Notes: a model not told the origin generated them from the sequence alone. A stretch of 54,112 bases of DNA from Reclinomonas americana ATCC 50394 (GCA_048213135.1 PS015076.1:1-54112); one strand, 5' to 3'. Positions 1 through 51,973 are shown, counted from the stretch's first letter. Translations and numbers: made by a program.

Positions 1-3000
1 TTACCGGTCGGGCCCGACACAATGACGGGTGCGGTCACCGCGCCGCCAAACTTGAATCGCAGCTTTAGCGCCCTGCAACCACGAAGAAGCATGGTCACAC
101 TCACGGAACAGGAAACAAAACAAGAGCCCTCTCAAAACAGACGCACGTGGTTGGAGGCGGTGGCACCGCCAGCGGCCCTTGCGCCGGAGGCGATGCCAGA
201 GTGGCGGGAGATGCTCGCGCCTGTGGCGGAGTCGTCAGCATCGGCGCCGACGGCGTTCGCGGCATGGGAGGTGGGGGTGCGGCCACACGTTGAGAGACGT
301 CGTCGTCCACCTTCATTGCAGTGGCCGACGGTGTTGGCGGGGCGGCTGGAGCAGGTACGGCCGGTCCCTGGTGATCCAAGAGAAGAAAAAGCATGAGGCA
401 ACAAAAGGTTGCACGTCTCTCTGTTGCTAACTGCGCTCCCTTTCTTCTTTCTCCCTCCTTATCTTTGCCTGCGCACGCACCTGCAAGCGCAGCTTGACGA
501 TCGATCCAGTGGACCCAGGTCCGCGATTGGGATTGGGCGGAATGCGCAGCGACAACGTAATGGGCGGTGGCGTGATCAGCAAGCCACCTCCAGCCGATGG
601 TGGTGGGGCCGGCAGAATGTCGTCGTCGTCCAGCAATTCTTCTTCCTGCTCCGACTCGTATTTCCCCGATTCCGATTCCTCATCGTCGTCCTCATCCTCG
701 TCTTCCTCCCCCATGACCTGCTCGTAGCCCCTGATCACTGGCGGCGCGGTCCTCACCGGCGGTGGTGGTGCGGGCCTCACTGGAATGGCGTCGATGCCGG
801 TGCAGTCGGCGGCCTCGCCCGGGAAGAACGTGTCGACCGTCTCCTCAAACAACCGCTATTGTTGTTGTTGGTTGTTATCTCACGTGAGCAACACTCCCGC
901 ACTGCTCACCGCCGCCCCACCTCGACGCACTCACCTTCAACGCCACGGCGTCGCGCCACACCATCGAGTCTGGCCGATTGTACGTCTTGGCATTCAACAC
1001 CATGCGATCCATTTCGGCTCGCATTTGTGGCAGCGTGTGAATCACGCCGTTCTTTATTCTCCTGCAGCAAACAGCGACAATAACAGGATGAACAATCGCC
1101 GACACGTCACCGACCGGGAAAAAAGGGGGGAAAACGCAACTGTCGAATGTCCTTGAGACAGGTCGGCACCTGGATGATCTTGTAGTAGTCGGGGTACTGT
1201 CGTCGCGAGGGCAGATCGAAAAAGATGCCGGCCCGCGAGTGTCCGTCTTCGGGGTCCTTGGCGGCGCGAACCACCTGCCAGAGACAAAGCAAGCACCGCG
1301 TCACACAGATCATTCGTGAAGGGAAGAAGCAAGAACGACAAAATAACCTTCCAGATGCGCATCATCTTCTCGGCAATCGGCAGCTGCAAGTCACGCGCCT
1401 TCTTTTCGTCCATGCGCTTGGCGCGCACATCAATCTTGCGCCGTTTTCTCGGCACAAAATCACCCTGCGTCGCACGACAGGTCAGTAAGCGCACTCACTG
1501 ACACTCTGCAAACGCGCCCTGGTGACGCAACTCGTTCCCAGCGCTCGCGCCTCTCATTGACCAACGACTGCCACTTGGGAACTGCGCCGATTCATGCGTG
1601 AGCTTCGCACCCACACACCCTCACCTTCACCACCAGCACCAACACGCAACTCGTTCGTGAGCCGACAGCGGGAATGTAGCGCAGTCCAAGAGGCAGATTG
1701 CCGACTTGCCGCCGCAATACTCCATCGGGACCAACGTAGGTCGGCACTCCATCCGCCGACATGATGGGTCCGGCGGCGGCGGCGGCATCGCGTGCCCAGT
1801 CGGCCATCTCTGCCTCCCTCGCATCCTCGCCCTCCTCGTCGGATTCGTGAATCTCATACGAAGCGTCGACATCCTCCTCCTCCTCCTCATCCTCCTCGTC
1901 TTCGTCGTAGTCGTCATCGTACCCACGCCGTCCGCCACGCATCGAAGTGTACGACCGCGCACCCAGTGTCGACGGCGTGGCGACGGCCGCCGAGGCACCC
2001 TCAACTTCGCCGGCCGCAGCCAGGCGCGCTTGTCGGCGCGCTCTCCGACGCGCCAGGTACTCCTGCGGGTCATCGCCGCGATCCACAATCGTCAGCCACT
2101 GCTCCTCCGTCAGGTCGTCGCTCAGCGTCATTGACGAGTCGCGCTTGCGAAGTCCGCGGCCAAACGTCGCCTCCACGACTCCTGTGCAATGCGAAGAGGA
2201 TCAGAACAGTCAATAACTATGTAAACGCGCCCGGTGAACACTTCCGCACCTTGCGTGAACTCCGCCGCTTGCTCCGTGGTCAGCAGCCAGTCTGGCAACT
2301 CCCGATCGTCCATCAATCGACTGCACAGCAGTAGGGGTGAGGGCGGGTTACAATAAGAAGGAGGCGACAAACAAACCTGGGCTTGCGCGTCACCATGCTC
2401 TCCTGCACGACACAGAAAAAAGAAACACATGAGTGTGTGAATCGACGACCCTTCACATTCTACTTGCGCACCTCACGTAGTCGCGCAGCGTCCATTTCTT
2501 CAAACACCGTCAGCTCTTCGTCGCTGCGTGCAATCAGCCTGCAAGAACAAATGCCCATCAGTGTCTCATTTTCCGTTTGTACAAGCATCAGACAACGACG
2601 CAACGAGTTCAGTTCGTCGTCGCCGGCCAGGTGCGACGTCTTGCTGCGCAAGTGGCTGGCCAGCTTCAGCGCCTGCATCTTGTCGCGCAGCTTGGCATCG
2701 TTCTCCTCGGCTGCGTGCGACACTGCGCCGTCGAGCTTGTCGAATCCACCCATTTGAATGGCGGTGGCCTCATTGTCGAGCTTGGTGTACGCCGTATCCA
2801 AAATGTACTCCTCCATCACCGACTCGGTGACCAGGCGCAGCACCAGCACCGCCTTCTTCTGGCCGATGCGATGGACACGCGCCTCGGCTTGTCGATCCAG
2901 TTGTGGATTCCTGTCGCACACAACCACATGAGGCGGCGATGCAACAACAATAATAGCAAAACAACACTTGATCGTTCCGCACCATTCCGAATCAAAGAGA

Positions 3001-6000
3001 ATGACCGTGTCGGCCGTCTGCAGATTGATGCCAATGCCACCGGCCTTGGTGGAGAGCATGAAAATAAAGTGGCGCGAGTTGGGATCGTTCCACGTGTCGA
3101 CCAGATTGCCACGAGCGACGGTGCTTGTGGAACCGTCCAGGCGCAGGTACAGATACCGTCGCAAGTCAAAGTACTTTTCCAACACGTCCATCAGCTTGGT
3201 CATGGTGCAAAAGATGAGCACCTGTGTTCGAAAGGGATGAGTGTGCAGGGCTTGGCTCTCTCTTGCTTGCTTGCTCCTCTCCCATTCTCTCAAGACAATG
3301 GACGAAACTCGATGATCCGTGGCCTGCAACTTGGGCAGAATGCGGTCGAGCAGCTCGAACTTGCCCGACGAGCGCACAATGTTCTCGTCGAGCGTGTAAC
3401 TCGCGCGGTATTGACTGCCGAGCGAATATAATAATCATCAGCGTGTGTCAAACAAAGGAGCGCTGAGCGAGGGGGGCAATGTGATCGAAACTTGGCCAGC
3501 AGGTATGGATGATTGCAGACTTTGCGGAGCTGCACGTGAGTGTTGCTGAAGTTGACCTCCTTGATCTCGATAATGCTGCGTGGCAGCATGCAGTGAGTGG
3601 GCGGGATCACATGAAGGAAGGGGGCGTGTGTGACACGACGTACCTTCCATCCACGTCGCGATAGACAATTGGCACTTTCTTGCCGGCGATGTGCTGGTAC
3701 ATGATCTGCACGGATAGACAAAGTGAGCGAGACAAAGCAAATGCCTTGTTGTCAGTTGTGCGAGAATGACTGCAACAGCAAGGCGGAACAACACCACACA
3801 TAAGTGACGAGAGATACGCACCCTCTGCATGGCCGACAACTGGCACCGCAACACGCGCTCCGTCTTCTCCGGCAACTGGCCCTCGACATCCTTCTTGACG
3901 CGCCTCAGCAAAAATGGTCGCAACACCTGCAGACGAGCGCATGAGAATGCATCCACCGTCTTGCGCTCATTCCTCTCTCCCTTCTCCCTGCCGCCCACGC
4001 AACTTGATGAAGACGCCTGATGACCAGCAGCTTTTCGTCCTCCGAGATCTCAGCCACACCCTTTTTCGCAAACGGTGCACTGAACCACTCCTCGAATGTT
4101 TCGCTCGAGTTGAAGAGGTGCGGCAGCAAAAAGTTGAGCAGCGACCAGATTTCGGCGATGCGGTTCTGCACATTCGTCAGCAGCAAGCGAGACCCACATT
4201 TAAAACGCAGGACAAGACTCACGTGAAACGGCGTGCCGGTGAGCAGCAAGCGATGGCGGGAGACGACCTCCTTGGAGAGAATGGTGTGTAGACGGCACTG
4301 GTCGTTCTTCAGGCGGTGACCCTCGTCGAGAATGGTGTACAGCCACTGGAACTTGCGCAACCGCGACTTGTCCTTCATGACTAGCGTGTCGGTGGTGACC
4401 AGCACGTTGAACTTGCCGTCGCGGAACACCTCCGAGTTCACAATCGTGTTGCGCGCATCCTTGTTGCCGGCGTACATGATCTTGATAACGTCGGGCGCCC
4501 ACTTGTCGAACTCATCCTCCCAGTTTTGCAGGGTTCTGTCGGTGGGTGTGAGCGCGGAATGAGATACCAGACAAAGAGAGAAAGAGAGGAGGTGAACGAC
4601 GCAACGTGTTGGGCACAATGATCAAGTACGGTCCGTTGAGGCCCTTGTGCTCCATCAAGTAGGCGATGAGAGAAATGGTCTGGATGGTCTTTCCGAGACC
4701 CATCTCGTCGGCCAGGATGCCATTCAGGTTGTTGTTGTACAGCGACACGAGCCACTGCAGGCCCTCCAGCTGGTACTTTTTCAACTCACCACCACGCAGC
4801 ATTGTCGGCTGCTCCACAATCAACTCTTCGTGCTTGTGGATTACGCGATAATACTGTGTGCGCACGCGGTGGTGAGGCAGCGCTCCCAGCACATTGTTTC
4901 AGAGAGAGACACACACACACCTCCTTTGTGTGAGCCGTGCGCGCCTCGGCAGCCGCTGACTCGTCGGCCGGGGTCTCCTCTTCGGCAGCGGCTCCGGCAC
5001 CTGCCGCTGCTGCTGCCGCCTCGGCGGCATCCTGATGATGCATCAGCACCGGATCGGCGCTGCTGGCCGACAACTCGCGCGCAATCTCATTGATCGAGTG
5101 CCCGCGCAGTTCCGCCAGCTCCTTCTCCACCAGCGCGATCTCGTCGGCGGCCGCCGGTGCGGTGGTGTCCACGGCGGCGGCTGTGCGCAGCGAGGGCATG
5201 AGAGGAAATTGAGAAGGATCCTCGTCTCACAGCCACGACAAACCGTCCGACACCACAGCTTCGAGGTCGCGCTGCTGCTGCACGGCGGTGCCGATGCGCT
5301 TCATAAAGTCGTCGGTCATCTTCAGCAGCGACACCAGGCGACTCTTTTTGGTGCCCTCGAGCATGGCCACGTACGCCTCCAGGTCGTCCTCACGCAGACG
5401 CTTCATGCGCTCGTTCTCCTGCCGCCGGTCGGCCGTCTCACGCTCACGCTCTCGTCGCAACGCCTCCTTTTTCACGGCGGCCATGACAATCTTTTGGCGC
5501 TTGCGCGTGTCCGTCCACGAGGCGGTCAAGTTCTCCCTGAATTCCATGGCTTTCTTCAGGAACAACATTTGTCGGCGGTACACGGCGTCCACGATGCGGC
5601 GGGTCTGCCAGGGAAAAAAGATGAGAAGGAGAAGGTGGGAGGAGCAAAGGGCGAGTAGTACCTCCTTCTCAACACCCTTGTCACTCAACCGCTGCGTCGC
5701 TTGCAGACGACCGTTCACCAGCAGAGCGAGAGCGCCTTGGCGTGTGCGATTGAACATGCTCAGGTCGCCGTTGGAGAAGTAGTCGGCCAGCAGCAGTCGC
5801 TCGTTGAGGGAGGTTCCGTTGCCGGAGTCTGTGAGGAGGGAAAAGGGATGGAGGGAGGGAAAGGGGAGGGAGTGAGGGAAAGGGGGAGGGGGAAAGGGGG
5901 AGAGGGAGAGAGAGGGAAAGGGGGAAAGGGGGAAAGGGGGAAAGGGGGAAAGGGGGAAAGGGGAGGGAGAGAGAGTTGTCGCTGGGAAAGATAAAGGAGG

Positions 6001-6190
6001 AGACAAGAACGAGAGCTTCTCCAGAACGCAACTCGAGAACAAATCCGACCGCGCAATGCACACATCGTGAATCCACCGCTCGGTCTCCTCATGTCGCAGC
6101 TCGACCTCTCGCACCACCTCCCTCTGCAGAGGTGCCACCTGCAAGCCGTGTGCGAGCAGCACCGTGCGACGACCACCAGCAGTGTCCACT
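1..6190 (-). CDS. SNF2: SWI/SNF ATPase of BRG1/BRM/Snf2 type (HSA-like helix, SNF2 helicase lobes, SnAC-like region, bromodomain); about 20+ introns; 5' end probably in gap 6456-6792, 3' end probably beyond the window edge
   Basis: Spliced exons give [131 protein letters not shown]...FGRGLRKR, and bromodomain [17 protein letters not shown]...[10 protein letters not shown]. Confidence 0.95.
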
Positions 6191-7868: not shown

Positions 7869-10784
7869 CTACTCTACTACTCTCTACGTAGTACGTACAC
7901 CTACGTACGTACTACTACGTACGTACTACGTACGTACGTACGTTACGTNNNNNNNNNNNNNNNNNNNNGCGCGCCACTGAACATCGTCTCGACGTTGTCG
8001 GTGGTACGTACGGACGGACCGGACGTAGCGAACGTACGAAGACGACGTGCGAGATGGTGTGTAGGAGGGAGGAAGGAGGGAGGGAGGGAGGAGAGAGAGA
8101 GAGAGAGAGAGAGAGAGGGACACTCAGAGCTCTTCACCTCTTGTGCCTGTCTTCTGTCTTCTCTTTTCTCGCTCACTCTCTCACACACGTTCTCTCTCTC
8201 TCACATGCACTCTCTCTTTCTCTGCGTGCGCGTGTGTGTGCATGTGTGTGCCTGACTCCGCGAGTGTGTCCTTGTTGGAGAGAGACAGTGGTCAGGGAAT
8301 GTCGGAATCTTGTCGGGCAGTGGATGCACTGTGTTTTGCTGTGTGTTAGGCGACGCGGAATGTCTCCTGTTGATTCAGCAAACAACAGAAAGAAGAGACT
8401 TGTGTCTATGCAGGGACCTTGCCTGTCGATGCACCGTCAGTGTGCAGCTAGAAGACTTTCATGATGTCATGTGTTGGTGCACTGTGTCTGTTCATCACCT
8501 GTTGTGCCTTGCCAGTCAGTGTGCAGTTAGAAAGCCCATGAGACTTTCATGATGTTATGCGTGTCGGTGCACTGTGTCTGTTCATCACCTGTTGTGCCTT
8601 GCCAGTCAGTGTGCAGTTAGAAAGCCCATGAGACTTTCATTGTGGCATGCGTGTTGGTGCACTGTGTCTGTTCATCACCTGGTGTGCCTTGCCAGCCAGT
8701 GTGCAGTTAGAAAGCCCATGAGACTTTCATGATGTCATGCGTGTCGGTGCGCTGTGTGTCTGTTCATCACCTGGTGTGCCGTGTCAGTCAATGCACTGTG
8801 CCTGTTAAGACGTGTCTCGCCTGATAGTGCCTCTCTGTGTCTGGCAAGAAGAATGAGAAGACTACTTTGTCGTGTCTTGCCTGTCTATCCCTCTTCACTG
8901 TTCTCCTGCACAACAGAGAGTTGGAAGAAAGTCGTGCTTTCTTTTGCCAAGAGAAGTCGTCTGTTGAGAGAGAAGTCCTCTTGTCGAGCCTCTCATCTTC
9001 CCCCTATTCCACCCTTTTCCTTCTTTCACCCAGGCCGACGAAGCATACCTCATTGGACCGCCGGCTGCACGCGAGTCGTACCTCGTGGGCGAGCGAATCA
9101 TTCAGCTGGCCAAGAGTGTCGGCGCGCAGGCCATCCACCCGGGCTACGGCTTCCTCAGTGAGAATGCCGAGTTCTCGGAGATGTGCGACAAGAACGGCGT
9201 CATTTTCATGGGCCCTCCGCCCTCTGCCATTCGTGCCATGGGCTCCAAGAGGCAAGTGTCTATCCGGTGACTTGTGTTGATGGTGTTGTTGTTGACGACG
9301 AGGCCGCGCAGTGAGTCGAAGCGCATCATGGAGGCCGCCAATGTGGCCTGCGTGCCGGGCTACCATGGCGACGATCAGTCACTGGAGACACTGTTGCGTG
9401 AGGCCGACCGCATCCGCTACCCAGTAATGATCAAGGCCGTGTCGGGTGGTGGCGGCAAGGGCATGCGCATTGTGGAGAAGAAGGAGGTGGGGGGTCACAT
9501 GCACCATCATTGTGCGTGGAAGAATGCTGAAACATCAGTGCTGCAGGACTTTGTGGAGATGCTGGCCAGCGCGAAACGCGAGGCCATGGCTTCGTTCAAG
9601 GACGATCGTGTCCTCGTCGAAAAGTACATTCAGCGACCACGCCATGTCGAGTTCCAAGTGTTTGCCGACATGCATGGAAACGCCGTGTACTTGTTCGAGC
9701 GCGATTGCAGTGTGCAGCGGAGGCATCAGAAGATTCTCGAGGAGGCGCCAGCGGTGAGTGGCTCGTGGGAAAGCAGGAGTGCAAGAGAAGTGTCGTCCCC
9801 TCTCCTGCGAATCTGCCCTTGGCTCTCCCCTGCAAAACATGCACTCGCTCCTCCATCAATCAATCTACGTTCCTTCTCGATCTGTCGTGTTGCATTTCAC
9901 GTTCTGAGTCAGAGACCACTGTCCTTCTCCCTTCTCCTCTCCTTCCCTTCCTTCCTCCCATCATCTCTCCCTCGGTCTCTCGCACTCCTTTCTCTCTCCC
10001 ATCCCATTCCCTTCCCTTCCTTCTCCCTTATTCTTTCTTTTTTTCACTGCTCTCTGTCTCTCTTCCCCGCTTATCTCCAAATTTCTTATCGTGCTGTCGT
10101 TCTCCCTCCTTCACTCCACGGATCTCTCTGTCCCTCCCTTCCCCATAGTCTCCTTCCCCTCACCCCCCCCCCTTTTTTTCCCGCATGTTCTCACAGCCTG
10201 GACTCTCGGAGGAACTGCGCAAGCAAATGGGCGAAGCCGCGGTGGCTGCGGCTCGCGCTGTCGGCTACGTGGGCGCCGGTGCGTGTCCCACCGCCCCTTT
10301 CTCACTCTCCGACTTACTCTCACCCGCCCTTTTCCTGGGCACAGGCACTGTGGAGTTCATTTTCGACGTCACCGAGGGCACCTTCTACTTTATGGAGATG
10401 AACACGCGTCTGCAAGTAGAACACCCGGTCACTGAGGCCATCACTGGCGAGGATTTGGTGCGGTGGCAGGTGCTGGTGGCGCGCGGCGAGACGCTGCCAA
10501 AGGCGCAGCACGAGCTGAAGCGAATTGGACACGCCATTGAGGCTCGCATCTACTCGGAGAATCCCGACAAGTTGCGTAGCTGGAGGCATTGACGGACTGA
10601 GTGTGTGGCACAATCGCTTTTGTTGCTCCTCTGTCTCACGCACAGTGCGTGTATCTGTGTGTATCACTCTCGCTCTCTCAGAACATGATTTGTGTTTTTC
10701 TTTCTGGATTTCTCTGCTTTCGTCTCTTCCTCTCTGTTTACCAGTGCGCCCTCTTATTCTGACCTTCTCTCTCTCTCTTTCTCT

Positions 10785-11092: not shown

Positions 11093-11112
11093 NNNNNNNN
11101 NNNNNNNNNNNN

Positions 11113-11185
<73 letters not shown>

Positions 11186-12510
11186 GGGAGAGAGGGAGAG
11201 AGGGAGAGAAGGGATAAAAGAGGGCAAGGGAGAGAGAGAGAAGGGGAGTGAGAGGAGAAAAGAGAAACAGACGCACACTCGCTCACACGGGCACTCGCAA
11301 AGGAGAGAGACACACGCACACACGCGCGCGCTCACTCGTGCACTTACGCAGAGACAGACCGAGAAAGATTATATACACCTGAAGAGTGAAAGAGTGGGAG
11401 AGACGCACACGAGCTCACTCGCGCACCCACTAACTCTTGCACACACGCGCACACTCACACAGAGAGACAGACAGACAGACAAATACACAGGGAGAGAGAG
11501 AGACACACACAAATGCAAGTGTACACATTTGTGAGCGCGCGTAAAATATCTCTTATACACACGCGCACACTCAGAGAGAGAGAGAGAGAGAGAGAGAAAG
11601 AAAGAGGGACATGAATACGTGGCCACTCATGCACTGACTCACTCTTGCACACAGACACACACACACGCGCACTCCCTCGCCCATACACGCACCTTTCAGC
11701 GCAGCAGCATCGACAGAGAGCTGCACAGCGGCCATCAGCGCCGCAGCCTCCGTCGGCACCTTGGTCAGCGGTGCAAACAGCGCGTCGCGGTTCTCCTGCA
11801 ACACCAATGTTAGTCTCATCTCTGACGCGCGCACCCACATCAATATAGACCTTGATAAAGTTGGTGTCGACTGCACCACTGCAGTACGCCGGGTGGCGGG
11901 CACAGGCCTTGAGGAACTCAATGTTGGTCGGCAGCCCAAACACCTGCACGCACACCGAGTGAGTGAGCACGCACACCGAAAAACAACAACAAAAAGAAGT
12001 GCGACGCACATGGAACTGGTTCAGGGCGCGGCTCAACGCGCGCAACGCCTCCTCGCGGTTCGGCGCATTCACCACCATCTTGGCAATCATCGGATCGTAG
12101 TAGATGCTGACCTCGTCGTTCTCACGCACGCCCGAGTCGATGCGCACGGCAGTCGCCGCGGCGGGAACAACAAACGACACGTGGTTCGGCGTCGACATGT
12201 GAAGCAGCTTGCCCGTGCCCGGGAGGAAGTTGCTGGGTGCGCATGCAAGGTGAGACAGGGAGGGGAGGGAGGGGGAAGAGAGGGGGAAGGGAATAGGGAG
12301 GGGAAGGAATAGAATGACAGAGAGAGAGAGAGAGAGAGAGAGGAGGAGAGAGAGAGGAGGAGACGAAACGAAACGAAAGTACGNNNNNNNNNNNNNNNNN
12401 NNNNNNNNNNNNNNNNNNNNNNNNNNNNNNNNNNNNNNNNNNNNNNNNNNNNNNNNNNNNNTCTCTCTCCTCTCTCTTCTTCCTTCCTCTCCTCCTCCTC
12501 CTCCTCCTCC

Positions 12511-12562
<52 letters not shown>

Positions 12563-13397
12563 CTCGCCGACTACAGTCGACAGCAACCCCGGCCCGTGGA
12601 CTCAACTGTCGGGCTTCCGCACCACCGGTGCTGCCACTCGCAAGTTGAACATCACCATGCCCGTCGACATGCATGTCGAATCGGGCACGGTGAGCACGTC
12701 GGTGGATGCCACCATCGAGTCGGCCAAGAAGGTGCACATTGCCACTGCCGATGGCGCATTTGATGTGGAGGTCAAGAGCTTCAATCGCCTGCCGTCTGCC
12801 TCGGAAGGTGCGTGCTGTGGGGAAAGGGTGCGTAGAAGCACAGCGCTTTCTGCCGCTGTCGCTCACCACCACCACCGTGCACAGCCGAGGCCTTCGTGCT
12901 GGTGGCCATTGTCAACGGCGAGCGCCGAGAGATCAAGTACGTGAATCACGCCGCGAGCGATCGTATGGCCTTGTTCCTCGACCGTGGCCGTCGCTACGAT
13001 TTTGTGCGCCAGCGTGGTTTGTCGCCGACTCGCTATGCCTTTTCTGCGTTGTTGTTTTGGGCCTCTCACTGTCACGTCCACAACAGGTCACTATGAGCGC
13101 GCTGCCGCTGGTGCGGGCCACTCACTGATGGCTCCAATGCCTGGCAAGATTGTCAAGGCGATGGTCAGCAAGGGCGAAACCGTCAAGAAGGGCCAGCCGC
13201 TTCTCATTCTGGAGGCCATGAAGATGGAGGTTTGTTGCCCCAAGTTATTTCTCTCTGCTTTTCACCTTCTCAAAATTTCTCTCGCTGCTCTCCAGCACAC
13301 GGTCAAGGCACCGGCCGATGGTGTGATCGAGTCGCTGAATTTCACAGTTGGCGGCATGGTGGGCGAGAAGCAAATGTTGGTGACGTTTAAGGAATGA
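7388..13397 (+). CDS. MCCC1: Methylcrotonoyl-CoA carboxylase alpha (biotin-containing) subunit, mitochondrial; multi-exon; the IANRGEIA exon is not visible and the internal exons at 11693-12232 are on the opposite strand
   Basis: Presequence-like [83 protein letters not shown], and biotinyl APMPGKIV...EAMKMEHTVKAP (MEH rather than the MQN typical of PCCA). Confidence 0.88.
8436..8780. repeat. Intronic minisatellite, 90-bp unit, about 4 copies
   Basis: GTGCAGTTAGAAAGCCCATGAGACTTTCAT recurs at 8521, 8611 and 8701; a shortened first copy starts near 8436. Confidence 0.93.
11693..12232 (-). CDS. MCCC1: Three internal MCCC1 exons on an apparently inverted contig (11113-12383)
   Basis: NFLPGTGKL...[37 protein letters not shown]...VDTNFIK, ENRDALF; splice phases fit the + strand exons ending at 10570 and starting at 12577. 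Confidence 0.9.
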
Positions 13398-13491: not shown

Positions 13492-15828
13492 TTAGCCGAT
13501 CAGAGGCATGTAGACGACGGCCGCCGTGGCCTCGCTGCCGAATCCCGCGTACGCAAGTCGAACACCGCGCTGTGAAGTGCAAGTCAGCCACAACAATCAT
13601 TCCTCTTCCCCTCATTCTCGTGTGACGCACTGATGCCTTGGCGGGGAATCCCTCAATCACGTCACGTGCAGCCATCTTGTCGGGGAAAGTGTTGCGATTG
13701 TACCACACCAGGTAGCCGACGGAGAGCAAGCCTTCGTCGCTCACCGCGCTGCCACGTAGTCGCTCCTCCGGATTCAGCAACGAGCACCTGTCGATATACC
13801 GTGAGCATATATATGCACAAGCCTGCGTGCATGCACAGCGACACGCAACACTTCAATCTTGACGGCTCCCTCCAGCCACTCGGCGGTCACCTGATCCACG
13901 CATTGCGGGAGCGTGCCGGGCACATACAGTGGCAGGTGGTGCGGATCCACCGGCATCAGCGACTGTCGCAGCAACTGCTGCAGCGCGGTTCCGGAGCCGC
14001 CATTGGCAAGCCCGCCGCGATTGATGCCGCGCGGAGACGCCGGCGGTGACGGTGTGCCAGTGAGAACACTGCGCAGGAGAGGAGACGCGGCTGTGGCGCG
14101 TGCCGGCGAGCCAAGCACGGGCGAGGCGGACGGCGAGGCGGTGGGGGAACCGGCGAGCAGCGGCGAAGGTGAGGCCGGGCGTGCAAACACGGGCGAGAGA
14201 ACCGGGCGCGATTCGTTGAAATCGGCGCCGAGGCACGGCGTGAAGCGCTCACGCAGCGACTCGCGATAGTCGGCGGGCAGCAGGCGCTCGCACTCCACGA
14301 GACGCATGAGCTCCGAGTCGCGCAGCTGCAGCGCATCCGAGTCCCCAATGTACTTGTTGCCGCCGACCAGCACCAGCGCGCGCAGCAGTTCCCCGTCCGC
14401 GGCTGTGCCCCGGTCGCCGAGTGAGAACGCAAACGAAACAGGAAGGAGAAGTAAAGCAAGAACGCACATCGATTGACGTCCACGAATGCCGCGTGGCGCA
14501 GACCATCGTGCACACCAGAGGCGGTGAGCAGGCGGGCCACGGTGGCCGCCGGCAACTCGTAGATGACGCCGTACACACAGCTGGCCTCGTCGGGCACCAA
14601 ATTCAAGTGCCCCTCAAAGAGGTGCGGATCGGGGCGGAAGTTGAGCGACAAACGGAAGCCCTCCAGCACCGCCGGCACCGCCTCCACCGCCTCCGGCACC
14701 TCAATGCCCTTGGGCCAGTCGCCGACCACAAAGTCGGCAAACGCAAAGAGGCGCACGCGCAGCTCCGACACATCACGCAGCGTCGGCGTCGGCAGGCGAC
14801 TGCGCGGACTCATCGCATGCTGCGCCGCCGCGCAGTCGGCCACATCATAGATCGCCCGGAAGATGACATCACGCACCGGATGCGTGCACACATCCACCAG
14901 CTGCTGATTGATATCAAACACGGCGGGAGTGTCGACAAAGCGCCGCAGATCGTCGACCGTGCGCAGTCCAATCAGGGCCAGCTTGTCGCGCAACACCTGC
15001 CGCGAGATGCCATCCATGGAGAACGCAGGCGCCACTGCATCCAAGCACTCGTCGAGCTCATCCCNNNNNNNNNNNNNNNNNNNNNNNNNNNNNNNNNNNN
15101 NNNNNNNNNNNNNNNNNNNNNNNNNNNNNNNNNNNNNNNNNNNNNNNNNNNNNNNNNNNNNNNNNNNNNNNNNNNNNNNNNNNNNNNNNNNNNNNNNNNN
15201 NNNNNNNNNNNNNNNNNNNNNNNNNNNNNNNNNNNNNNNNNNNNNNNNNNNNNNNNNNNNNNNNNNNNNNNNNNNNNNNNNNNNNNNNNGTGCGCAAGTC
15301 GACACGCGCACCGGCACCTGTGTCGACGGAAAATCGAGAAATCGACTGCATGCATGTCGAGATAGAATGAATCAATGAACTGCTCCAGCATGATATGATT
15401 GATCGTATGATGAGTGAGCGAACCCGTCGCGACGCCACTCGTCAATGACGCACTGCATCTTGATGAGGGTGCGGCGAATGGGATGCAAGTGCGCCATTTT
15501 GCCTGCGCGAGTCACCGGGCCCGCCAATACGGGTTCCAAGTGGTCCACTGCCAGGCGACCGCGGTCCGCCGCCAGTGCCAGCTGATGCACGTTGAGAATG
15601 CCGAGTCCTCCGCGTCCTCCAGTGCCGGCGAGTCCGCTGCGACGCGAGGAGGAGCGCAGGGCGGAGATGGTGTCCGCTGCTGCACTGGCGCTCTCCCTGT
15701 GCGTGCGTGTGCGTTGAGAGAGAGTGTGTGTGTGCGTGTGTGACGGTGGGGAGGAGTGTGCGTAACCACTCAAGTCGCTGAGCGACCTCGTCCATGAAGT
15801 CTGTCAACTCGTAGCCGCCTCCGCTCAT
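13492..15828 (-). CDS. Hypothetical multi-exon protein with a SAM-like helical segment and a gamma-glutamylcyclotransferase (GGCT/AIG2)-like domain; interrupted by gap 15065-15289
   Basis: RLFAFAD...PAVLEGFRLSLNF...NLVPDEASCVYGVIYEL...RLLPADYRESLR matches the GGCT-fold pattern; LALIGLRTVDDLRRF lies upstream. Start and end were hand-spliced. Confidence 0.6.
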
Positions 15829-16734: not shown

Positions 16735-19634
16735 TCATTCCGCCACCACCACCCTCCACGCCCTAAGCGACAGACCCACCAGCACCGCCACAAACGACAC
16801 CACCTCGTACCCGGGATATTTCTGTCGCAGCCCCTTCGCGTATCGCAGCACCTGCTTCTCGGCGCCCTCTGCCGCCGCGAGCACATTCGTTAACTCACCA
16901 CGACCACCAGCCACCTTGTAAGAGATGGCAGCCAGCATGGCTCTGCCTTCCTCCGTGGTGCAGTCGTCGCTGATCTGCACGAGCAGAGGATGATGTCATG
17001 ACAAAGAGAAGCCCTTTGCCCCTAACCACACACACTCACCGGCAGCTTGGCGTCAACGGCACGAATAGCTGTATCAATGGCCTTGGCCTTCGCCAGCATG
17101 GTCTCTGTCTTAGCCTCTGCCATTACCACCGCCAGATCTGTGTGCGTGTGTAAATACCGTGCGATGTGACAGTGTGTTCGCTGCGGCGGAAGACGCAACC
17201 CGAGTGAACCACATGCAGCGGCACCGCTTTGAACTCGATTACAATTATGCGCATTAGAGACTCGGAAATGATGGCCATGTCGCAGAACTGTGTCTTGGGT
17301 CGACCCTGTTGAGAAAACGATGAGGCGCGCCGCCCGAAAAGACGAGGAGGCTTGTGATCGTCGCCCACCTCCAGGCTGACATCCAGCTCGAATTCCATCT
17401 TCACCGGTGCCTTGGCCGCCGCTAGTTGCACAAAGAAGGCGTCCGTAACGTGTCGCTCCCGCAAGTGCTCCGGATTGCGTGACTGGTGCTCGCGCAGCCA
17501 CTCCTCACAGACATTGTTCAAGAGGACGATGTCGAGATTACTGGTGTGTGCGAAAGAGGGAGAGTGATCACAAACGCGAACAGGCAGGAAAAACACACAA
17601 TAAGCGCAGAGGGAGGCGGAGAAGGAGGAAGCGCCGACGGTTGAGACCTGAGAAGTGCGTTGCAGGCGGCTGGGCAGGCGCGCTGAACAAGGCGCCGCAG
17701 GATGCGGTCGCGAGTATTCTCATTTGGCACCACCAGGCCTGACGGCGGGTAAGCACGATTAAGGAGAGCAGAGATGACGGACGACGCAACTCTGGCCGTC
17801 CGGCGCAATGGTGTAGCCGCCAACGTACTGGCAGAAGCGCGCAAACATAGTCTCGTCGGCGCCAGCGACATCTTCGCCGCGGAATGGATCCACATCGTCG
17901 GGCAGTGCGACCTCACTAGACGTGGAACCGCGGAGTACGCTCAGCAAGATGGGCAGGTGTTGCGATTGCACCATCAATTGGAGGGCTGCGTCGCTAAGTT
18001 CCACGTTGGAGTAGGTAGTGCGAGGCGCTCGCTTCCCCTTCTGGACCTCCTGCAATTGCGAAAACAGTGAGTGTAATCGCTCATCATCTCCTGGTCATAC
18101 TTCACGGGAACACACCCGCATGTACGACATGACATGATCGGTGCAGTAGATGGGAATGGCACTCGGCCCATCAAAGAAGCGGAAGCCATTGTAGCGCTGG
18201 CGAATGACGGTGTGGTACATGGTCTTGTTGACGGTGGAGAGCGAGGAGCCATCACGAAGTTGCACGCGGTCCAGAAGGAGATCCACTTCGGCTTCGGTCA
18301 GACCGCACATGGCTTGTTCATCTCGTCAAACGTGCAGTCCACGCCAATGTTGAAACCGCTGGTCATGTCGTTGGTGGCCAGCGGGAGAACACTGTACGTA
18401 TATATGTATGTGTGTGTGTGTGATGGGGCGTCAGAGTTACTTCGTGCGCGTGCGTGTGACAAAAGGGGAGAGGAAGAGAGCAAACGCACCCTGTGATTAG
18501 CATGAAGGGGACGAGACCGCTCTGCACTGCGCTCTTGATGGAGGCAAACAAGCCCTTCACACCACAGTCGCTGAGCAGATTCTGGTACTTGTGTGCATCG
18601 GTGTGATCGAGGGCAGGAACGAAGGGTCGATCGGACTCGTCGACAAGGATGACGAGCTGCGGGGGTGCGGGGTTGAGTGACCGATTGCACACCAGAGCAT
18701 GGTTGGTCGCACCTTCCTGCCGACATCCCGCACAGCATCACGAATGAGCGAGAAATGGTGAACAGACGATCCACCTTCTCTTGTGGCACACCGCTCGCGC
18801 AGCTCTGGGTACTGCGCCAGGAACGGTCGGACGCACTCGTCGGAGAAGAACAGGTCAAATATGCCACGCGAAGACTGCGGCTGGGAGAGCGAGAAGTCCA
18901 GCGCAGACATATCCACCTTCAGTACGTAGTGCTGGCAAGGCAACTGCTTGCGATGCACCTCGTGGATGCGATCCACGATTTGCAGCCCCTGTGCTGTGGG
19001 AGAGAGAGAGAGAGTGAGTGCGAGAGAGAGAGAGGAGTGAGTGCGAGAGAGAGAGAGAGGAGAGAAGAGACGACGCAACAAGCGACAAGTACGGTCTGGA
19101 GTACGCGAGATACACCGACGCAGATCTCTCTCGTGCTGCCCGCGTCACTCATTCCTTCGCTGCCAGGGTCTCACTCTCTCTCTCTCTCTCTCGCCCTACT
19201 TCCACCATTGCATCTCCTCCTTCTCCTCTTCTCCGCAAGGTGCTGTACCAGGATCTTTGCTGTCGCCCTCACTCCTCTCGTACACTCATACTCACACCCA
19301 CCTGGAACAGCTGCTCAAACGCACTCTCGCCGTGCGAGACACGCCCGCTGAGCAGCCTCGCGTGCAACGCCGACACGGCTTGTTCATGCCCTTCCTCCAT
19401 GGTTGAACGGTGTGCATAGCGGCGCTTCCCGGGAGGCAGCGCATTGTTAATGTCGTGGTAGTTGGCGAGTGTGTCGAGCAGCAGGCTCTTGCCAAAGCGA
19501 CGCGGGCGCACATAGATCAAGGGTGATATGCTTGGCGGGCGAAACCACGCGAGAAGCTGCGCGGTCTTGTCTACGTAACAGAGCTCGGGTGTGCTGCGAA
19601 TGAGCGAGAAACCGTGGCCAGAGGGAGGAATCAT
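16735..19634 (-). CDS. AAA-ATPase-like domain + C-terminal PD-(D/E)XK nuclease-like protein (family mostly known from bacteria), with spliceosomal introns
   Basis: YVDKT...YVRPRRFGKSLLLDTL (Walker A), LFQ|GLQI, LVILVDESDRP (Walker B), MLITG, SGFN, CGLTEAEV, YNGFRF, LVVPNENTR, then FCDMAII...IIVIEFK and AEKQVLRY. Confidence 0.85.
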
Positions 19635-26808: not shown

Positions 26809-27407
26809 ATGCCCGGTGGTCGTCTCTTTATCGAGCGCATGGAGGAAATGGAGCATGCGTGTCGGCTGAAGATGGCGCGCATGATGGATATCAGTTGCGT
26901 GGAGACAGTTGCTCTGCTCGTTGTTCTTCTTGGTAGCTGACTGCTGTCACGTGCAGCACAAATCGTCGGCAGCAACTTCAACCTGGAGGACCCGCCAGCT
27001 CCCGTGTTTTACACGATTCGTGCCGTCGGTGACGTCAACCTGTACAAGAGCGAGCGATCCGACGATTGCCGCAACCCGCAGTGGGCGCCGCTGAGTACGG
27101 CGAAGCTGCCGAAGAAACTCGGACACGCGGCGGTGGTGGAGATCGCGGTGCACAAGGGAAAGAACATGTTCTTTGACAAGATTTTGAACCTGTCGCAGCT
27201 GCGGCACCTGGACACCGAGAGAGTTGCGTCCGTCTCCTCGCGTGTGCGGANNNNNNNNNNNNNNNNNNNNTTTGTGACACACAGGTGCTGAACTTGCTTT
27301 TGATGCAGGATCGATCGGTCATCAACAAGTCGAACATGTTGATCTTCGTCATGGGAACGCAGATGTACTACTGCGATCTGACGGAGCTGCCGTCGCGGAG
27401 GTCGTAG
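26809..27407 (+). CDS. Small protein resembling the UVRAG/Vps38 N-terminal C2 domain; exons 26809-26893, 26957-27222, 27309-27407
   Basis: MMDITQIVGSNF...VFYTI...LYKSERSDDCRNPQWAPL...LNLSQLRHL...NMLIFVMGTQMYY parallels UVRAG LRNIAARNI...FYRSEVIKNSLNPTW...LDGLKYL...NEIIFGLNDGYY (recalled). Confidence 0.65.
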
Positions 27408-28087: not shown

Positions 28088-28403
28088 CAGAACTCACTCG
28101 GTTTGTCGGCACTCCATCACGACTTGAGGAGGTACGAGTGAAGTTTTGTGTGTCTCTTGAGTGTTTGGAGAAGACTGCATATCTCTGGCTGCTTATGGTT
28201 GGAAACTACATTTCTATCGATATTCATTATGTGTTGCACTGCACACGGCAGCAGTGGTCTTGCATGCTCACTCACTTTTGATTGCCATGCAGGTCCAGCG
28301 GTGGCGGTGGTGGTGCGCTCTTGAAACGAAGTACAAGATCGCATTTGCTCTCCGAAATTTTGACTGTAGGCGGGCGTGGTTCTCCCGGTTTCCTTGCCTC
28401 ACG

Positions 28404-29585
28404 ATGAACGCAGCATCTGCTTCGGCGTCGCGCATTCACCAGTCGCACACCCAACGACACCGACGACGACGACGACGACGCAGCGGCACTGCGGAGGATG
28501 ATTCTCACTCATCAACGACCGCGACACCCACTTCTCACCCCGAGAGTGCCACTGCGCCGAAGGAGTCTGCATTGCTCAGTCCATCTGCGGCAGCTGGCAG
28601 CCGTGCGACCTCTCGCAGACGGCGTGCAACGCCCCACTTTCGTGTGCCTCATGGATCTGGGGTCGATGATGACGAAGTGATGCGTCGCCTGCAACACTGG
28701 CTCGAGACAGACGGCCGGGCAACCGAGCAACAGGCGGATCACACGTTTGTTGTGCGGCGGACCACGATTGGTGCGTTTGTGTGCTGGGTGAAGATCATCG
28801 TGGTGTGACAGCCACTTTTGGTTTACACAAATGGCCTCTCTCTCTCCCTCTCTCGTTGCACAGGCAAGCCACCGCCGTTGAAGAAGTGGCGACAAAAGTG
28901 GCCGGAGGCTGTCGCGCAGAATGGCGGCCGTGCAGTGGATCCACGCGAGTTGTTGCGAGGCAGCCGGTGTGCGGAGATGGATGGGCAGATTTTGGTCGCG
29001 CTTGCCAAGGAGCACATCACCGGCGTGATCAAGCCAGAACAGTTTTCAGCCGCCCTCTGTCACCTGCAACAGTCGCTGGCCAAGTGCGTGGTCGACGGCA
29101 CTGCGGTGTCTGTGGAGACTGTGCCTCTTCTGCGTGTGCTGCCGAGGAAGAGACGCGACCCGTATCGAGAACGAGCGTGTCTGCGAGTGTGGGTGGGGCC
29201 AGCGGCGGATCGAGTCGCTGTGTGTGAGACGATTGTGGCGGCCACTCCGCCTGAGGGTGTGTTGTGGATGGTGCTATGCTGTCCACCGGAGGATGCGGTG
29301 TTCTATGGCTTGCCGAGCTACGAGCCGCGCAAGTTGAGAATTGAATGGGCCGCACCAGAATGGGCCATTACCGAGTACAACGTCGACAACTTCGACTTTG
29401 ACAACTTCCTGGCAGACCCCTCTATCGGCGCGACATACGATCCAGCCTTCTTCGGTTGCGAACCATTGACCGACGCCCAGCTGATAGCTCTTGGTGTGAA
29501 ATGTCCTCTGTTGCGCAAGTTCCTCCGCACGGACTCTGGCGTCGCCGACGGCGCTGGCGCGGAATGTGGGCACTCGCATGACTGA
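28404..29585 (+). CDS. Array gene copy 1: poly-Arg/Ser-rich N-terminus, unknown core, SAM-like C-terminus; exons 28404-28770 and 28864-29585
   Basis: In-phase GTGCGT...CAG intron (TI G|GC K); tail FDNFLADPSIGATYDPAFFGCEPLTDAQLIALGVKCPLLRKFLR. Confidence 0.75.
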
Positions 29586-29942
29586 CCGATCTCTCTCGGA
29601 TTGTCGGCACCCTCGCACGACTTGAGGAGGTGTGTTCAGACGAGTGCAGTCGTGTGTCGTTGTTTGTGTCTCTTGAGTGTTTGGAGAAGATTGCACGTGG
29701 TACTTGGTGCACGGTTTGTGCTTGGTGGTGTTTGGCTCGCGGCATTGAGGGACTGCATTCCTTTCGATATTCTTGCACTGCACACAGCCACAGTGATCCT
29801 ACATGCTCACTCGCATTTGATTGCCATGCAGGTCCAGTGGTGGCGGTGGTGGTGCGCTCTTGAAACGAAGTACAAGACCACAATTGCTCTCCGAAATTTT
29901 GACTGTAGGCAAGCGTGGTTCTCCCGGTTTCCTTGCCTCACG

Positions 29943-30365
29943 ATGAACGCAGCATCTGCTTCGGCGTCACGCACGAACCAGTCGCACACCCAACGACACC
30001 GACGACGACGACGACGGAGCGGCACTGCGAAGGATGATTCTCACTCATCAACGACCGCGACACCCACTTCTCACCCCGAGAGTGCCACTGCGCCGAAGGA
30101 GTCTGCATTGCTCAGTTCATCAGCGGCAGGTGGTAGCCGTGCAACTTCTCGCAGACGGCGTGCAACGCACCACTTTCGTGTGCCTCGCGGATCTGGGGTC
30201 GATGATGACGAAGTGATGTGTCGCCTGCAACACTGGCTCGAGACAGACGGCCGGGCCACCGAGCAACAGGCGGATCGCACTTTTGTTGTGCGGCGGACCA
30301 CGATTGGTGCGTTTGTGTGTTGTGTGCAGATCATCGTGGTGAGGCAGTCACTTTTTTGTTTACAC

Positions 30366-30408
<43 letters not shown>

Positions 30409-31150
30409 CACAGGCAAGCCACCGCCGTTGAAGAAGTGGCGACAAAAGTGGTCGGAGGCGGTCGCGCAGAATGGCGGCCGTGCAGTGGATCCCCGTGAGT
30501 TGTTGCGAGGCAGCCGGTGTGCGGAGATGGATGGGCAGATGTTGATCGCTGCCGATCTTGCCGAGTACGAAGAGCGAGGTGCCGGTGGCGCGATTGATTC
30601 GCAACTGTTTTCAGCCGCCCTCTGTCACCTGCAACAGTCGCTGGCCAAGTGCGTGGTCGACGGCACTGCTGTCTCTGTGGAAACTGTGCCACCTCCGCGT
30701 GTGCTGCCGAGGAAGAGAGGCGACCCATATCGAGAACGAGTGTGTCTTCGAGTGTGGGTGGGGCCAGCGGCGGATCGAGTCGCTGTGTGTGAGACGATTC
30801 TGGCGGCTCGGCAACCGGATGGTGTGACGTGGATCGTGCTATGCTGTCCACCGGAGGATGCGGTATTCTATGGCTTGCCGAGCTACAAGCCGCGCAAGTT
30901 CGCCTTCGAATGGGCCACGCCAGAATGGGTCATTACCGAGTACAACGTCGACAACTTGGACTTGGACAACCTGCTGGCAGACCCCTCTGTCGGCGCGACG
31001 TGCAATCCAGCCGATTTCGGCTGCAAACCTATGACAGACGCCCAGCTGATTGCTGCAGGTGTGAAATGCGCTAAGCTGCGCAAGTTCCTCTGCGTGAACT
31101 TTCCCGTCGCCGACGGTGCTGGCGCGGAATGTGGGCGCTCGCGTGACTGA
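29943..31150 (+). CDS. Array gene copy 2; exons 29943-30306 and 30414-31150
   Basis: Same structure with an open frame. Confidence 0.75.
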
Positions 31151-31515
31151 CCGATCTCTCTCGGTTTGTCGGCACTCCATCACGACTTGAGGAGGTGTGT
31201 TCAGACGAGTGGAGTCTATGTCGTTGTTTGTGTCTCTTGAGTGTTTGGAGAAGATTGTACGTCTCTTGCTGCTTGTTGCACGGTTTGTACTTGGTTGTGT
31301 TTGGCTCGAGGCATTGAGGGACTGCATTTCTATCGATAACATGTGTTGCACTGCACACGGCAGCAGTGATCTTACGTGCTCACTCATCTTTGATTGTCAT
31401 GCAGGTCCAGCGTTGGCGGTGGTGGTGCGCTCTTGAAACGAAGTACAAGATCGCATTTGCTCTCCGAAATTTTGACTGTAGGCGGGCGTGGTTCTCCCGG
31501 TTTCCTTGCCTCACG

Positions 31516-32668
31516 ATGAACGCAGCATCTGCTTCGGCGTCATGCACGAACCAGTCGCGCGTCCAGCGACGACGACGACGACGACGACGAAGCGGCACTG
31601 CGGAGGATGATTCTCATTCATCAACAACTACGACACTCACCTCTCCCCCCGAGAATGCCACTGCGCCGAAGGAGTCTGCATTGCTCAGTCCATCTGCGGC
31701 AGCTGGCAGCCGTGCGACCTCTCGCAGACGGCGTGCAACGCCCCACTTTCGTGTGCCTCATGGATCTGGGGTCGATGATGACGAAGTGATGCGTCGCCTG
31801 CAACACTGGCTCGAGACAGACGGCCGGGCCACCGAGCAACAGGCGGATCGCACTTTTGTTGTGCGGCGGACCACGATTGGTGCGTTTGTGTGATGTGTGA
31901 AGATCATCGTGGTGTGACAGTCACTTTTTGTTTACACAAGTGGCCTCTCTTTCTCTCTCGCTGCACAGGCAAGCCACCGCCGTTGAAGAAGTGGCGACAA
32001 AAGTGGCCGGAGGCTGTCGCGCAGAATGGCGGCCGTGCAGTGGATCCACGCGAGTTGTTGCGAGGCAGCCGATGTGCGGAGATGGATGGGCAGATTTTGG
32101 TCGCACTTGCCAAGGAGCACGTCACCGGCGTGATCAAGCCAGAACAGTTTTCAGCCGGCCTCTGTCACCTGCAACAGTCGCTGGCCAAGTGCGTGGTCGA
32201 CGGCACTGCGGTGTCTGTGGACACTGTGCCTCTTCCGCGCGTGCTGCCGAAGAAGAAGGGCGACCCGCATCGTGAACGAGTGTGTCTGCGAGTGTGGGTG
32301 GGATCAGCAGTGGATCGAATCTCTATGTGCAAGACGATTGTGGCGGCCACTCCGCCTGAGGGTGTGTTTTGGATGGTGCTGTGCTGCCCACCGGAGGATG
32401 CGGTGTTTTTTGCTTGCCCAGCTACGAGCCGTGCAAGTTCTCCTATCATTGGGCCGCACCAGAATGGGTTATCGACGCGTATGACTTCGACAACATTGAC
32501 TTGGATATCTTGCTGGCAGACCCCTCTGTCGGCGCGACATACGATCCTGCCTTATTCGGCTGCGAACCATTGACCGACGCCCAGCTGATAGCTGCAGGTG
32601 TGAAATGTCCTCTGTTGCGCAAGTTCCTCTGCACGGACTCCGTCGTCGCCGACGGCGTTGGCGACTGA
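31516..32668 (+). pseudogene. Array gene copy 3, frameshifted near 32405-32413 (real or homopolymer error), with a shortened 3' end
   Basis: GTGTTTTTTGCTTGCCC versus TTC TAT GGC TTG / TTT TTT GGC CTG in other copies; the homologous protein continues in ORF 32369-32668. Confidence 0.6.
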
Positions 32669-33023
32669 CCGATCTCTCTCGGTTTGTCGGCAATCCATCA
32701 CGACTTGAGGAGGTGTGTTTTGACGAGTGAGTTCTGTGTCATTGTTTGTGTCTCGTGAGTGTTTGGAGAAGATTGCACGTGGTACTTGGTGCACGGTTTG
32801 TGCTTGGTGGTGTTTTGTTCGAGGCATTGAGGAACTGCATTTCTATTGATATTCTTTGCATGTTGCACTGCACACAGCAACAGTGATCATACAGCTCACT
32901 CATCTTTGACTGCCATGCAGGTCCAGCTGGTGGTGCGCTCGTGAAACGAAGTACAAGATCACATTTGCTCTCCGAAATTTTGACTGTAGGCAAGCGTGGT
33001 TCTCCCGGTTTCCTTGCCTCACG

Positions 33024-34964: not shown

Positions 34965-35327
34965 TCGATCTCTCTCGGTTTGTCGGCACCCTCGCACGAC
35001 TTGAGGAGGTGTGTTTTGACGAGTGGAGTTTTGTGTCGTTGTTTGTGTCTCTTGAGTGTTTGGAGAAGATTGTACGTCTCTTGCTGCTTGTTGCACGGTT
35101 TGTACTTGGTTGTGTTTGGCTCGAGGCATTGAGGGACTGCATTTCTATCGATAACATGTGTTGCACTGCACACGGCAGCAGTGATCTTACGTGCTCACTC
35201 ATCTTTGATTGTCATGCAGGTCCAGCGTTGGCGGTGGTGGTGCGCTCTTGAAACGAAGTACAAGATCACATTTGCTCTCCGAAATTTTGACTGTAGGCGG
35301 GCGTGGTGCTCCCGGCTTCCTTGCCTC

Positions 35328-37212: not shown

Positions 37213-37571
37213 CCGATCTCTCTCGGATTGTCGGCACTCCATCACGACTTGAGGAGGTGTGTTCAGACGAGTGGAGTCTATGTCGTTGTTTGTGTCTCTT
37301 GAGTGTTTGACGATGACTGCACGTCTCTCGCTGCTTGTTGCGCGGTTTGTGCTTGGTTGTATTTGGTTGGAGACTACATTCCTTTCGATATTCTTTGCAT
37401 GTCGCACTGCACACAGCCACAGTGATCTTACATGCTCACTCATCTTTGACTGCCATGCAGGTCCAGCGTTGGCGGTGGTGTTGCGCTCTTGAAACGAAGT
37501 ACAAGATCACATTTGCTCTCCGAAATTTTGACTGTAGGCGGGCGTGGTGCTCCCAGTTTCCTTGCCTCACG

Positions 37572-51899: not shown

Positions 51900-51973
51900 T
51901 GAAGAAGTCCAACAAGGACAGTTGCAGGCTCGCGCGGCCGAACCTCTGTCCACTTTCACATCACACTTTCATA

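Follow-up and report, generated by a model that had tools for sequence, protein, structure and literature searches.

Human 5′ splice sites of the shifted-register kind are still cut at a GU when U1 small nuclear RNA (snRNA) pairs one position off, and experiments on human sites have demonstrated U1 registers of both the shifted and the bulged kind, as set out in the sections of PMC4856993 drawn on here. The donors described below have a similar layout. They lie in a stretch of 54,112 nucleotides (nt) from Reclinomonas americana ATCC 50394 (GCA_048213135.1 PS015076.1:1-54112), called the window throughout, in which a SNF2/Brahma-type ATPase gene has introns that begin with GTTGCGT or GTTTCG. 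All counts refer to the window unless otherwise stated, and donors are named by the position of the first intron base.

Other atypical donors have been recorded. In the passages compared from bioRxiv 10.1101/2022.06.08.495308, Entamoeba has GUUUGU donors and a U1 reading ACAAAC, Mastigamoeba has a U1 reading ACGUAC, and a standard U1 accompanies both the GYGCGY donors of Mamiellales green algae and the preference for C at +4 in Thecamonas trahens. Two classes of 5′ splice site, distinguished by pairing potential with U5 versus U6, are described in the cited part of Open Biol 2025 (PMC11732430). Among the matches listed for literature on GTTGCGT-type words, none concerned splice donors, supplementary intron tables lying outside that search; the matches on shifted registers were human work only, genome-paper supplements being likewise outside it.

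We give roughly even credence to the reading that the introns in question are real, short spliceosomal introns of the GT-AG type, in which the 5′ splice-site signal and the point of cleavage differ in register by one nucleotide. The class accounts for 8 of the 22 introns of one gene and for 15 of about 65 introns placed in the window; it is therefore a major donor class here and not a rarity.

Gene model and homology tests

The SNF2/Brahma-type gene occupies 1..5828 on the minus strand, with HSA, helicase, SnAC-like and bromodomain regions, and its 3′ end lies beyond the window. The curated model contains 22 introns, all bounded by GT..AG and most with a branch-like motif; U2-type GT-AG introns typically have a branch-like CTNAY upstream of a YAG acceptor. 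After splicing, the frame is free of stops over 1400 amino acids (aa) and runs from the HSA region through the helicase lobes to the bromodomain. Six introns begin with GTTGCGT (4605, 4003, 2604, 1650, 1531 and 1140, minus strand) and two with GTTTCG (3491 and 3308, minus strand); all eight are present where an initial annotation of the window had placed them, and the frame across all 22 introns is open. The remaining donors are GTGCG(T/G/C) (six), GTGAGT (two), GTACGT, GTGTGT and GTACTA (one each), GTTTGT (two, at 5243 and 2376) and GTTATT (one). The displaced class, GTTGCGT plus GTTTCG, is therefore 8 of 22, and 11 of 22 introns start with GTT.

Minor, U12-type introns have the donor RTATCCTT and the branch site TCCTTAAC. 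They were ruled out here, as the donors read GTTGCGT or GTTTCG.

Intron boundaries were examined with 18 full-length SNF2 homologues, found via one exon. Junctions were checked for gaps in a MAFFT alignment, and donors were placed with a protein-to-DNA spliced aligner that permits any GT..AG and has no knowledge of donor motifs. Two class donors were recovered with all 18 homologues at gap-free junctions: 4605 (intron 4536..4605, 70 nt, cac|GTTGCGT, junction VPN(T)|TLQNW) and 3308 (3222..3308, 87 nt, cga|GTTTCGT, junction DHR|VLIF). Donor 4003 (3927..4003, 77 nt, caa|GTTGCGT, RRLHQ|VLRPF) was recovered with 15 of 18, again without a gap. Donor 3491 (3415..3491, 77 nt, caa|GTTTCGA) was also recovered with 15 of 18, using the acceptor at 3415 with 10 homologues and that at 3400 with 5; its junction stands at the start of a variable stretch in the alignment, and no other GT lies near the exon end. 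The intron within the bromodomain (1062..1140, 79 nt, aca|GTTGCGT) was placed with 8 of 18 homologues, those that have the domain, and is gap-free. Donor 2604 (2539..2604, 66 nt, ctc|GTTGCGT, DDELN|SLIARS) is gap-free against all 18 and was chosen in the spliced alignment by 6 of them; 5 of 18 chose a rival donor at 2637, use of which would remove a conserved LN. Junctions at 1347 and 2376 are gap-free as well. For ordinary donors the same aligner gave 18/18 at 4222 (GTGAGT), 18/18 at 2982 (GTGCGG) and 12/18 at 3821 (GTGCGT).

Two further SNF2 donors fall in non-conserved sequence, where the assignment is based on frame continuity together with good branch and CAG acceptors, and where in-frame alternatives exist. 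Donor 1650 (1582..1650, 69 nt, cga|GTTGCGT) has a CTCAC...GCAG acceptor and many in-frame alternatives, 1624 being favoured by gene finders. Donor 1531 (1465..1531, 67 nt, cga|GTTGCGT) has the branch-like motif TACTGAC and was picked by a gene finder with no donor term.

Outside SNF2, a donor in MCCC1 (10571..10577, plus strand, caa|GTTGCGT, junction ENPD(N)|NFLPG) was recovered with 5 of 5 homologues; the matching acceptor is at 12233, within an inverted contig (11113-12383). The MCCC1 alignments also gave a GTTTGT donor at 13230 (5/5). In eIF2-gamma, 5 of 5 homologues gave GTGAGT at 52294 and GTTCGT at 53335, and GTGCGT at 53620 follows the conserved ...RLVGQ. The initial annotation had held that splicing at these unusual sites restores conserved protein; this was borne out at 4605, 4003, 3308, 2604 and 1140, where junctions are gap-free and the spliced alignment recovers the donors, as well as at 10571 in MCCC1. 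Judged from these alignments, homology fixes the position of five GTTGCGT donors and of two GTTTCG donors, independently of the donor motif.

The same alignments bear on the idea that the class is an artefact, arising from wrong gene models or, in a draft assembly, from a falsely inserted T or an erroneous base call. The draft has 16 runs of N and one inverted contig, and simple gene finders misplace many donors. Against this, the seven donors just named are fixed by homology that takes no account of the motif, an extra-T error would leave NA|GTGCGT, contrary to the usual G at −1, and a G-to-T miscall at NAG|GT would break the frame, which is intact at 8 of 8 SNF2 sites. For the homology-anchored sites an artefact appears largely refuted, and overall we consider it extremely unlikely.

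Displacement of the exon side

For comparisons of sequence context, the class set comprised 15 sites (13 GTTGCGT donors and the two GTTTCG donors of SNF2), which were set against 32 ordinary donors from ten genes and against 6 GTT donors with G at +5. Among the ordinary donors GTGCG occurs in 18 of 32 (GTGCGT being commonest) and GTGAG in 9 of 32. Median intron length is 69 nt for the class and 68.5 nt for ordinary donors. The last exon base in the class is A at 11 sites, C at 2, T at 1 and G at 1, whereas 26 of the 32 ordinary donors have G there (Fisher 1.4e-6); when SNF2 is taken by itself, G at −1 is found in 0/8 class and 8/10 ordinary donors (p=0.001). An early claim that the exons end in A or C and never in G holds for the 11 sites then listed, but among sites since added 17199 ends in G and 13849 in T. 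The GTT donors that keep G at +5 (four GTTTGT and two GTTCG) have G at −1 in 6 of 6 cases, and it is therefore membership of the displaced class, rather than T at +3 as such, that goes with the effect. Relative to a background of 1094 GTT sites, of which 21% are preceded by A, the 11 of 15 in the class represent an enrichment (p=2e-5).

The four GTTTGT introns are at 5181-5243 and 2321-2376 (minus strand) and at 13017-13086 and 13230-13295 (plus strand). These donors are of the Entamoeba type and complementary to U6, and all have G at −1.

When read one base further 3′, the class sites become GAG, AAG or CAG (or ACG, TCG, GTG, GGG) followed by TTGCGT or TTTCG. With a matrix built from ordinary donors and omitting +1 and +2, the score of the 15 class sites rises from −14.95 to +7.45 bits when they are moved by one base; ordinary donors score 6.26. 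The three exon positions alone go from −1.47 bits unmoved to +2.15 bits moved one base 3′. The motif had been described at the outset as G|GTGCGT moved by one base, the +1 G of the intron taking the place of the −1 G, and these scores extend that description, since the exon side also becomes NAG. Exon-side and intron-side consensus are both displaced by one base. The sites have the make-up of +1 shifted-register sequences: they fit the donor consensus poorly as they stand and well once moved by one base 3′, and at −1 they carry the A of consensus position −2.

Displacement of the whole consensus fits a shifted register and argues against a simple bulged U. In a bulge model, the extra U at +3 (or +2) would be looped out, leaving the register of U1 and U6 pairing as in ordinary donors (GU-[U]-GCGU). 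Bulge registers are documented, in the sections cited of PMC4856993, and the intron side taken by itself (GU + U + GCGU) is equally compatible with a bulge and with a shift. The model nonetheless predicts an unmoved exon side with G at −1, as in 26 of the 32 ordinary donors, where the class has G at 1 of 15 and A at 11 of 15, and the exon positions score −1.47 bits unmoved as against +2.15 moved. Because the exon side is displaced, the bulged-U model is disfavoured, and we regard it as very unlikely.

Class members outside SNF2

A gene finder was written that combines codon usage with acceptor, branch and length terms and has no donor term. Version 1 read through in-frame introns, version 2 (acceptor/branch model) found 14 of the 22 introns in the curated SNF2 model and version 3 (motif bonus) 16 of 22. 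The finders served as a donor-blind control and as a source of intron proposals in genes without homologues. In such genes the donor-blind finder picked GTTGCGT at 6032, 13849, 17790, 17199, 26894 and 27223. The first belongs to a candidate intron of 204 nt upstream of the HSA region (5829..6032, minus strand, cga|GTTGCGT), proposed by this finder without homology support. Three more are on the minus strand, in genes with no family match: 13788..13849 (62 nt, agt|GTTGCGT), 17739..17790 (52 nt, aga|GTTGCGT) and 17138..17199 (62 nt, cgg|GTTGCGT), the last being the sole class case with G at −1. On the plus strand are 26894..26956 (63 nt, tca|GTTGCGT), where the next exon has no Pfam match, and the interval 27223..27284 (62 nt, aga|GTTGCGT), which contains a gap of 20 N (27251-27270).

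No Pfam family was found below the curated cut-offs in nine exons flanking the non-SNF2 sites, and these genes, including the one named 'C2 gene' in the initial annotation, are without independent support. The donors 26894 and 27223 assigned to that gene stand as picks of the donor-blind finder; the C2 identity lacks a Pfam match. A probable intron at 18994..19079 (minus strand, 86 or 91 nt, ctt|GTTGCGT), with a CT-rich body, CTCAC and a CACAG acceptor, is kept outside the 13. Site 23746 runs into a gap and is a candidate, and the case for 43748 (GTTGAGT) is weak. A GTTTCG site at 24212 was left out of the class, since its model conflicts with a higher-scoring model on the opposite strand.

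Enrichment and use of the heptamer

GTTGCGT occurs 20 times in the window (both strands), compared with 10.86±2.97 in dinucleotide shuffles, and none of 100 shuffles reached 20. Thirteen of the occurrences are read as intron starts, 5 by homology and 8 by frame and acceptor. As for the others, 19079 is a probable start and 23746 a possible one running into a gap, 47516 is within another intron, and 7339 and 13443 are in untranslated or intergenic sequence; the last two, at 9393 and 45591, are taken up below. The donor-blind finder used 10 of the 20 as donors where 0.48 would be expected (155 introns/6460 GT sites; p~1e-11), and it used none of the 20 sites reading GTAGCGT, GTCGCGT or GTGGCGT. 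The preference is therefore specific for T at the third position. Within the window, GTT donors are enriched for a shifted GCGT; GTTGAGT, which the initial annotation had listed with the class, has 5 occurrences and is barely used. The displaced class reproduces the ordinary donor repertoire only in part and shows a strong preference for ...GCGT.

These counts also bear on relaxed recognition of the 5′ splice site. Very short introns might be defined across the intron by branch and acceptor, with GTTGCGT a common tolerated variant that mutation bias or some factor besides U1 has shaped, and the NAG appearance a by-product; this we judge unlikely. Odd donors with homology support (GTACTA, GTTATT, GTGGGG, GTCTAT, GTTTGT) speak for it, as do weak predicted U1 pairing in several ordinary donors without G at −1 and the fact that exonic GTTGCGT without a nearby branch and acceptor is unused. 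On the other side, one exact heptamer recurs 13 times, the heptamers that differ from it in having A, C or G at +3 are unused (0/20), and a coordinated shift of the exon side would be hard to obtain in this way.

Four of the odd donors, supported by homology or frame, are GTACTA in an in-frame intron of 57 nt (5605-5661, minus strand), GTGGGG (9487-9546, plus strand), GTCTAT (11796-11850, minus strand) and GTTATT (1275-1347, minus strand). Donor choice beyond GT looks loose in this organism. At two ordinary GTGCGT donors, 51984 and 53620 (plus strand), TGCG follows at once, giving a second GTTGCG four bases into the intron (GTGCGTTGCG); these are possible tandem donors.

Proposed register of U1 pairing

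In the reading with a displaced signal, the recognised element would be the ordinary nine-base NAG/GUGCGU (or NAG/GUUCGU) with U at its '+1', that is NAG-UUGCGU, and the cut would fall one base upstream, at the sole GU present (NA|GUUGCGU). By analogy with human shifted-register sites, the 5′ end of U1 would read the displaced element in the +1 register, and U6, U5 and Prp8 would then set cleavage at the GU.

A number of observations weigh against this. Duplexes were calculated with ViennaRNA using the standard U1 5′ end as printed in PMC4856993, from which the U1 of the host may differ; they are weak, about −0.5 to −2.3 kcal/mol at 13 of 16 sites, reach up to +0.5 kcal/mol at two sites, and are −3.3 and −5.0 kcal/mol at two others, while ordinary donors give about −1 to −15 kcal/mol. 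The program selected the shifted register at 1 of the 16 sites. The depletion of G at −1 that had been predicted is significant relative to ordinary donors, but it is not relative to all GTT sites, of which G precedes only 13.5% (p=0.38). Of the 5 occurrences of GTTGAGT, one or two at best are used, against 13 for GTTGCGT, although GTGAG accounts for 9 of the 32 ordinary donors. Two GTTGCGT sites, 9393 and 45591 (plus strand), are inside sense-strand coding exons and apparently unspliced; no branch-like motif precedes any YAG 40-160 nt downstream of either. The lists of 32 ordinary donors and of about 65 introns in all were put together manually from finder output and are not exhaustive, and the gene models behind 8 of the 13 GTTGCGT donors have no homology support. 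Finally, cleavage positions come from frames and homology alone, and a joint +1/+1 shift of both intron ends, giving a TT...AGN intron, would yield identical protein at 4003 and 4605. Note that the TT...AGN alternative was rejected solely because it breaks the GT-AG rule.

The context of the exonic site 45591 is CA|GTTGCGT.

Weak pairing with the standard U1 5′ end is what would be expected if a dedicated variant snRNA read the class, either a second U1 complementary to (N)A|GUUGCGU or a U6 with a changed ACAGA box; the class would in that case be a co-evolved signal rather than the standard U1 used in a shifted way. Co-evolved U1 5′ ends are known from Entamoeba and Mastigamoeba (in the passages compared from bioRxiv 10.1101/2022.06.08.495308), and the strong preference for ...GCGU over ...GAGU fits a specific partner. 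The same passages, however, give a standard U1 for the C-at-+4 lineages Thecamonas and Micromonas. The moved exon side is the ordinary NAG, as one partner working in two registers would predict, and an Rfam search of the window found no snRNA gene and so nothing direct in favour of a variant. We consider such an snRNA quite unlikely.

Other features of the window

The window is GC-rich and intron-rich eukaryotic sequence in a gappy draft with 16 N runs, and it gave no match to any Rfam family, hence no snRNA gene. Microsatellites of (CA)n and (GA)n/(CT)n adjoin most N runs and also fill long introns throughout. The contig 11113-12383, bounded by the N runs 11093-11112 and 12384-12461, is placed in reverse orientation within the scaffold, so that three MCCC1 exons are on the minus strand and the rest of MCCC1 on the plus strand.

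A search of 50%-identity representatives with a SNF2 exon gave a best match of no more than 55% among 150 and none above that, and the lineage seems poorly sampled; a search with another SNF2 exon returned a single match, at 47%. The best match to an eIF2-gamma exon was 81%, green algae being among the named matches. For an MCCC1 exon the best matches were at 86% (Allomyces, Blyttiomyces); other chytrids reached 83% and bacteria ~80%. There is at most a hint of affinity with zoosporic fungi, with which the introns of 60-79 nt reported for Blastocladiella emersonii, in the part of PMC2773782 cited here, agree. Related metagenome contigs were found at 3 loci. Only one match, at 23%, spans the query; the other two cover 47 residues at 39% and 14 residues at 79%, and the three are of no use for comparing orthologous introns.

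A tandem array of five or six paralogous genes, for which no family was found, occupies 28100-38800 (plus strand). Its members have a common intron position and a common donor, attg|GTGCGTTTG. Four intron-poor WD40-repeat genes are clustered at 44738-45799 (plus strand) and at 48189-49469, 49622-50806 and 50982-51968 (minus strand); they have highly regular repeats and a common C-terminal motif (...RCFIVEDAEAVLFRC...).

Discussion

The initial annotation had gone beyond the window to propose an snRNA-level mechanism and genome-wide use. Its interpretation as a whole is partly supported: the moved-by-one-base reading is upheld and sharpened by the sequence, and pairing of U1 or U6 in that register, a variant snRNA and genome-wide use stand as proposals. 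At slightly less than an even chance, the whole lineage may routinely use one-base-out donors for between a fifth and a third of its introns; if so, either U1/U6 pairing is decoupled from cleavage-site choice genome-wide or a second, dedicated snRNA is employed.

Donors in a shifted register have been known as rare exceptions, examined singly in human minigenes. If a major and uniform class of this kind is real, it would provide a natural system for asking what fixes cleavage when U1 pairing points one base off. Its short introns, single heptamer and clean exon-side signature would be useful in such a study, and the class would also bear on the tolerance of U6 and U5 for an extra base and on the co-evolution of snRNAs. 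In practice, annotating this genome with gene finders that were trained on ordinary donors would get many of its introns, a large share, wrong; of the 22 introns curated in SNF2, our own finders, donor-blind and motif-aided, missed 6 to 8.

The comparisons that follow rest on the passages of each source cited here. In Entamoeba (bioRxiv 10.1101/2022.06.08.495308), U at +3 is normal in donors, as it is here, where four GTTTGT are present. Entamoeba, however, has few introns and one nearly universal donor (88-90% GUUUGU), whereas the window holds several classes in an intron-rich gene set: GTGCG at 18 and GTGAG at 9 of 32 ordinary donors, plus the 15 displaced sites, so that no one atypical donor is nearly universal. 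GTTGCGT also differs from the GUUUGU type in having no G at +5. The C-at-+4 donors of Mamiellales and Thecamonas resemble the ordinary donors of the window, of which GTGCGT is commonest; a displaced GTTGCGT class is not mentioned for them in the passages compared, the supplementary tables being outside the comparison. Like the U5/U6 classes of PMC11732430, the donors here separate into classes within one genome. Those classes use a common register, whereas the present class has neither G at −1 nor G at +5 in the ordinary register.

The bulged-nucleotide and asymmetric-loop U1 registers of PMC4856993 have in common with the class an extra nucleotide between the GU and the conserved G/U on its 3′ side, but there the exon side stays ordinary, and here it is displaced too. 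The human shifted-register sites (Tan et al. 2016, PMC4856993) are closer. In both cases there is a GU at the cut, the match is poor in the ordinary register and good when the pairs move by one position, a U occupies the position that would face C8 of U1, and A at −1 replaces the consensus A at −2. Pairing at the human sites was shown in cells with suppressor U1, whereas here pairing in that register is proposed from sequence. The human sites are atypical and of the GUUAAGU kind, whereas the body of the donors described here, GCGU or UCGU, equals the local ordinary consensus and the class supplies 8 of the 22 introns of one gene. The rare shifted-register donor was known before; its use as a major, uniform class appears to be new relative to the literature compared here.

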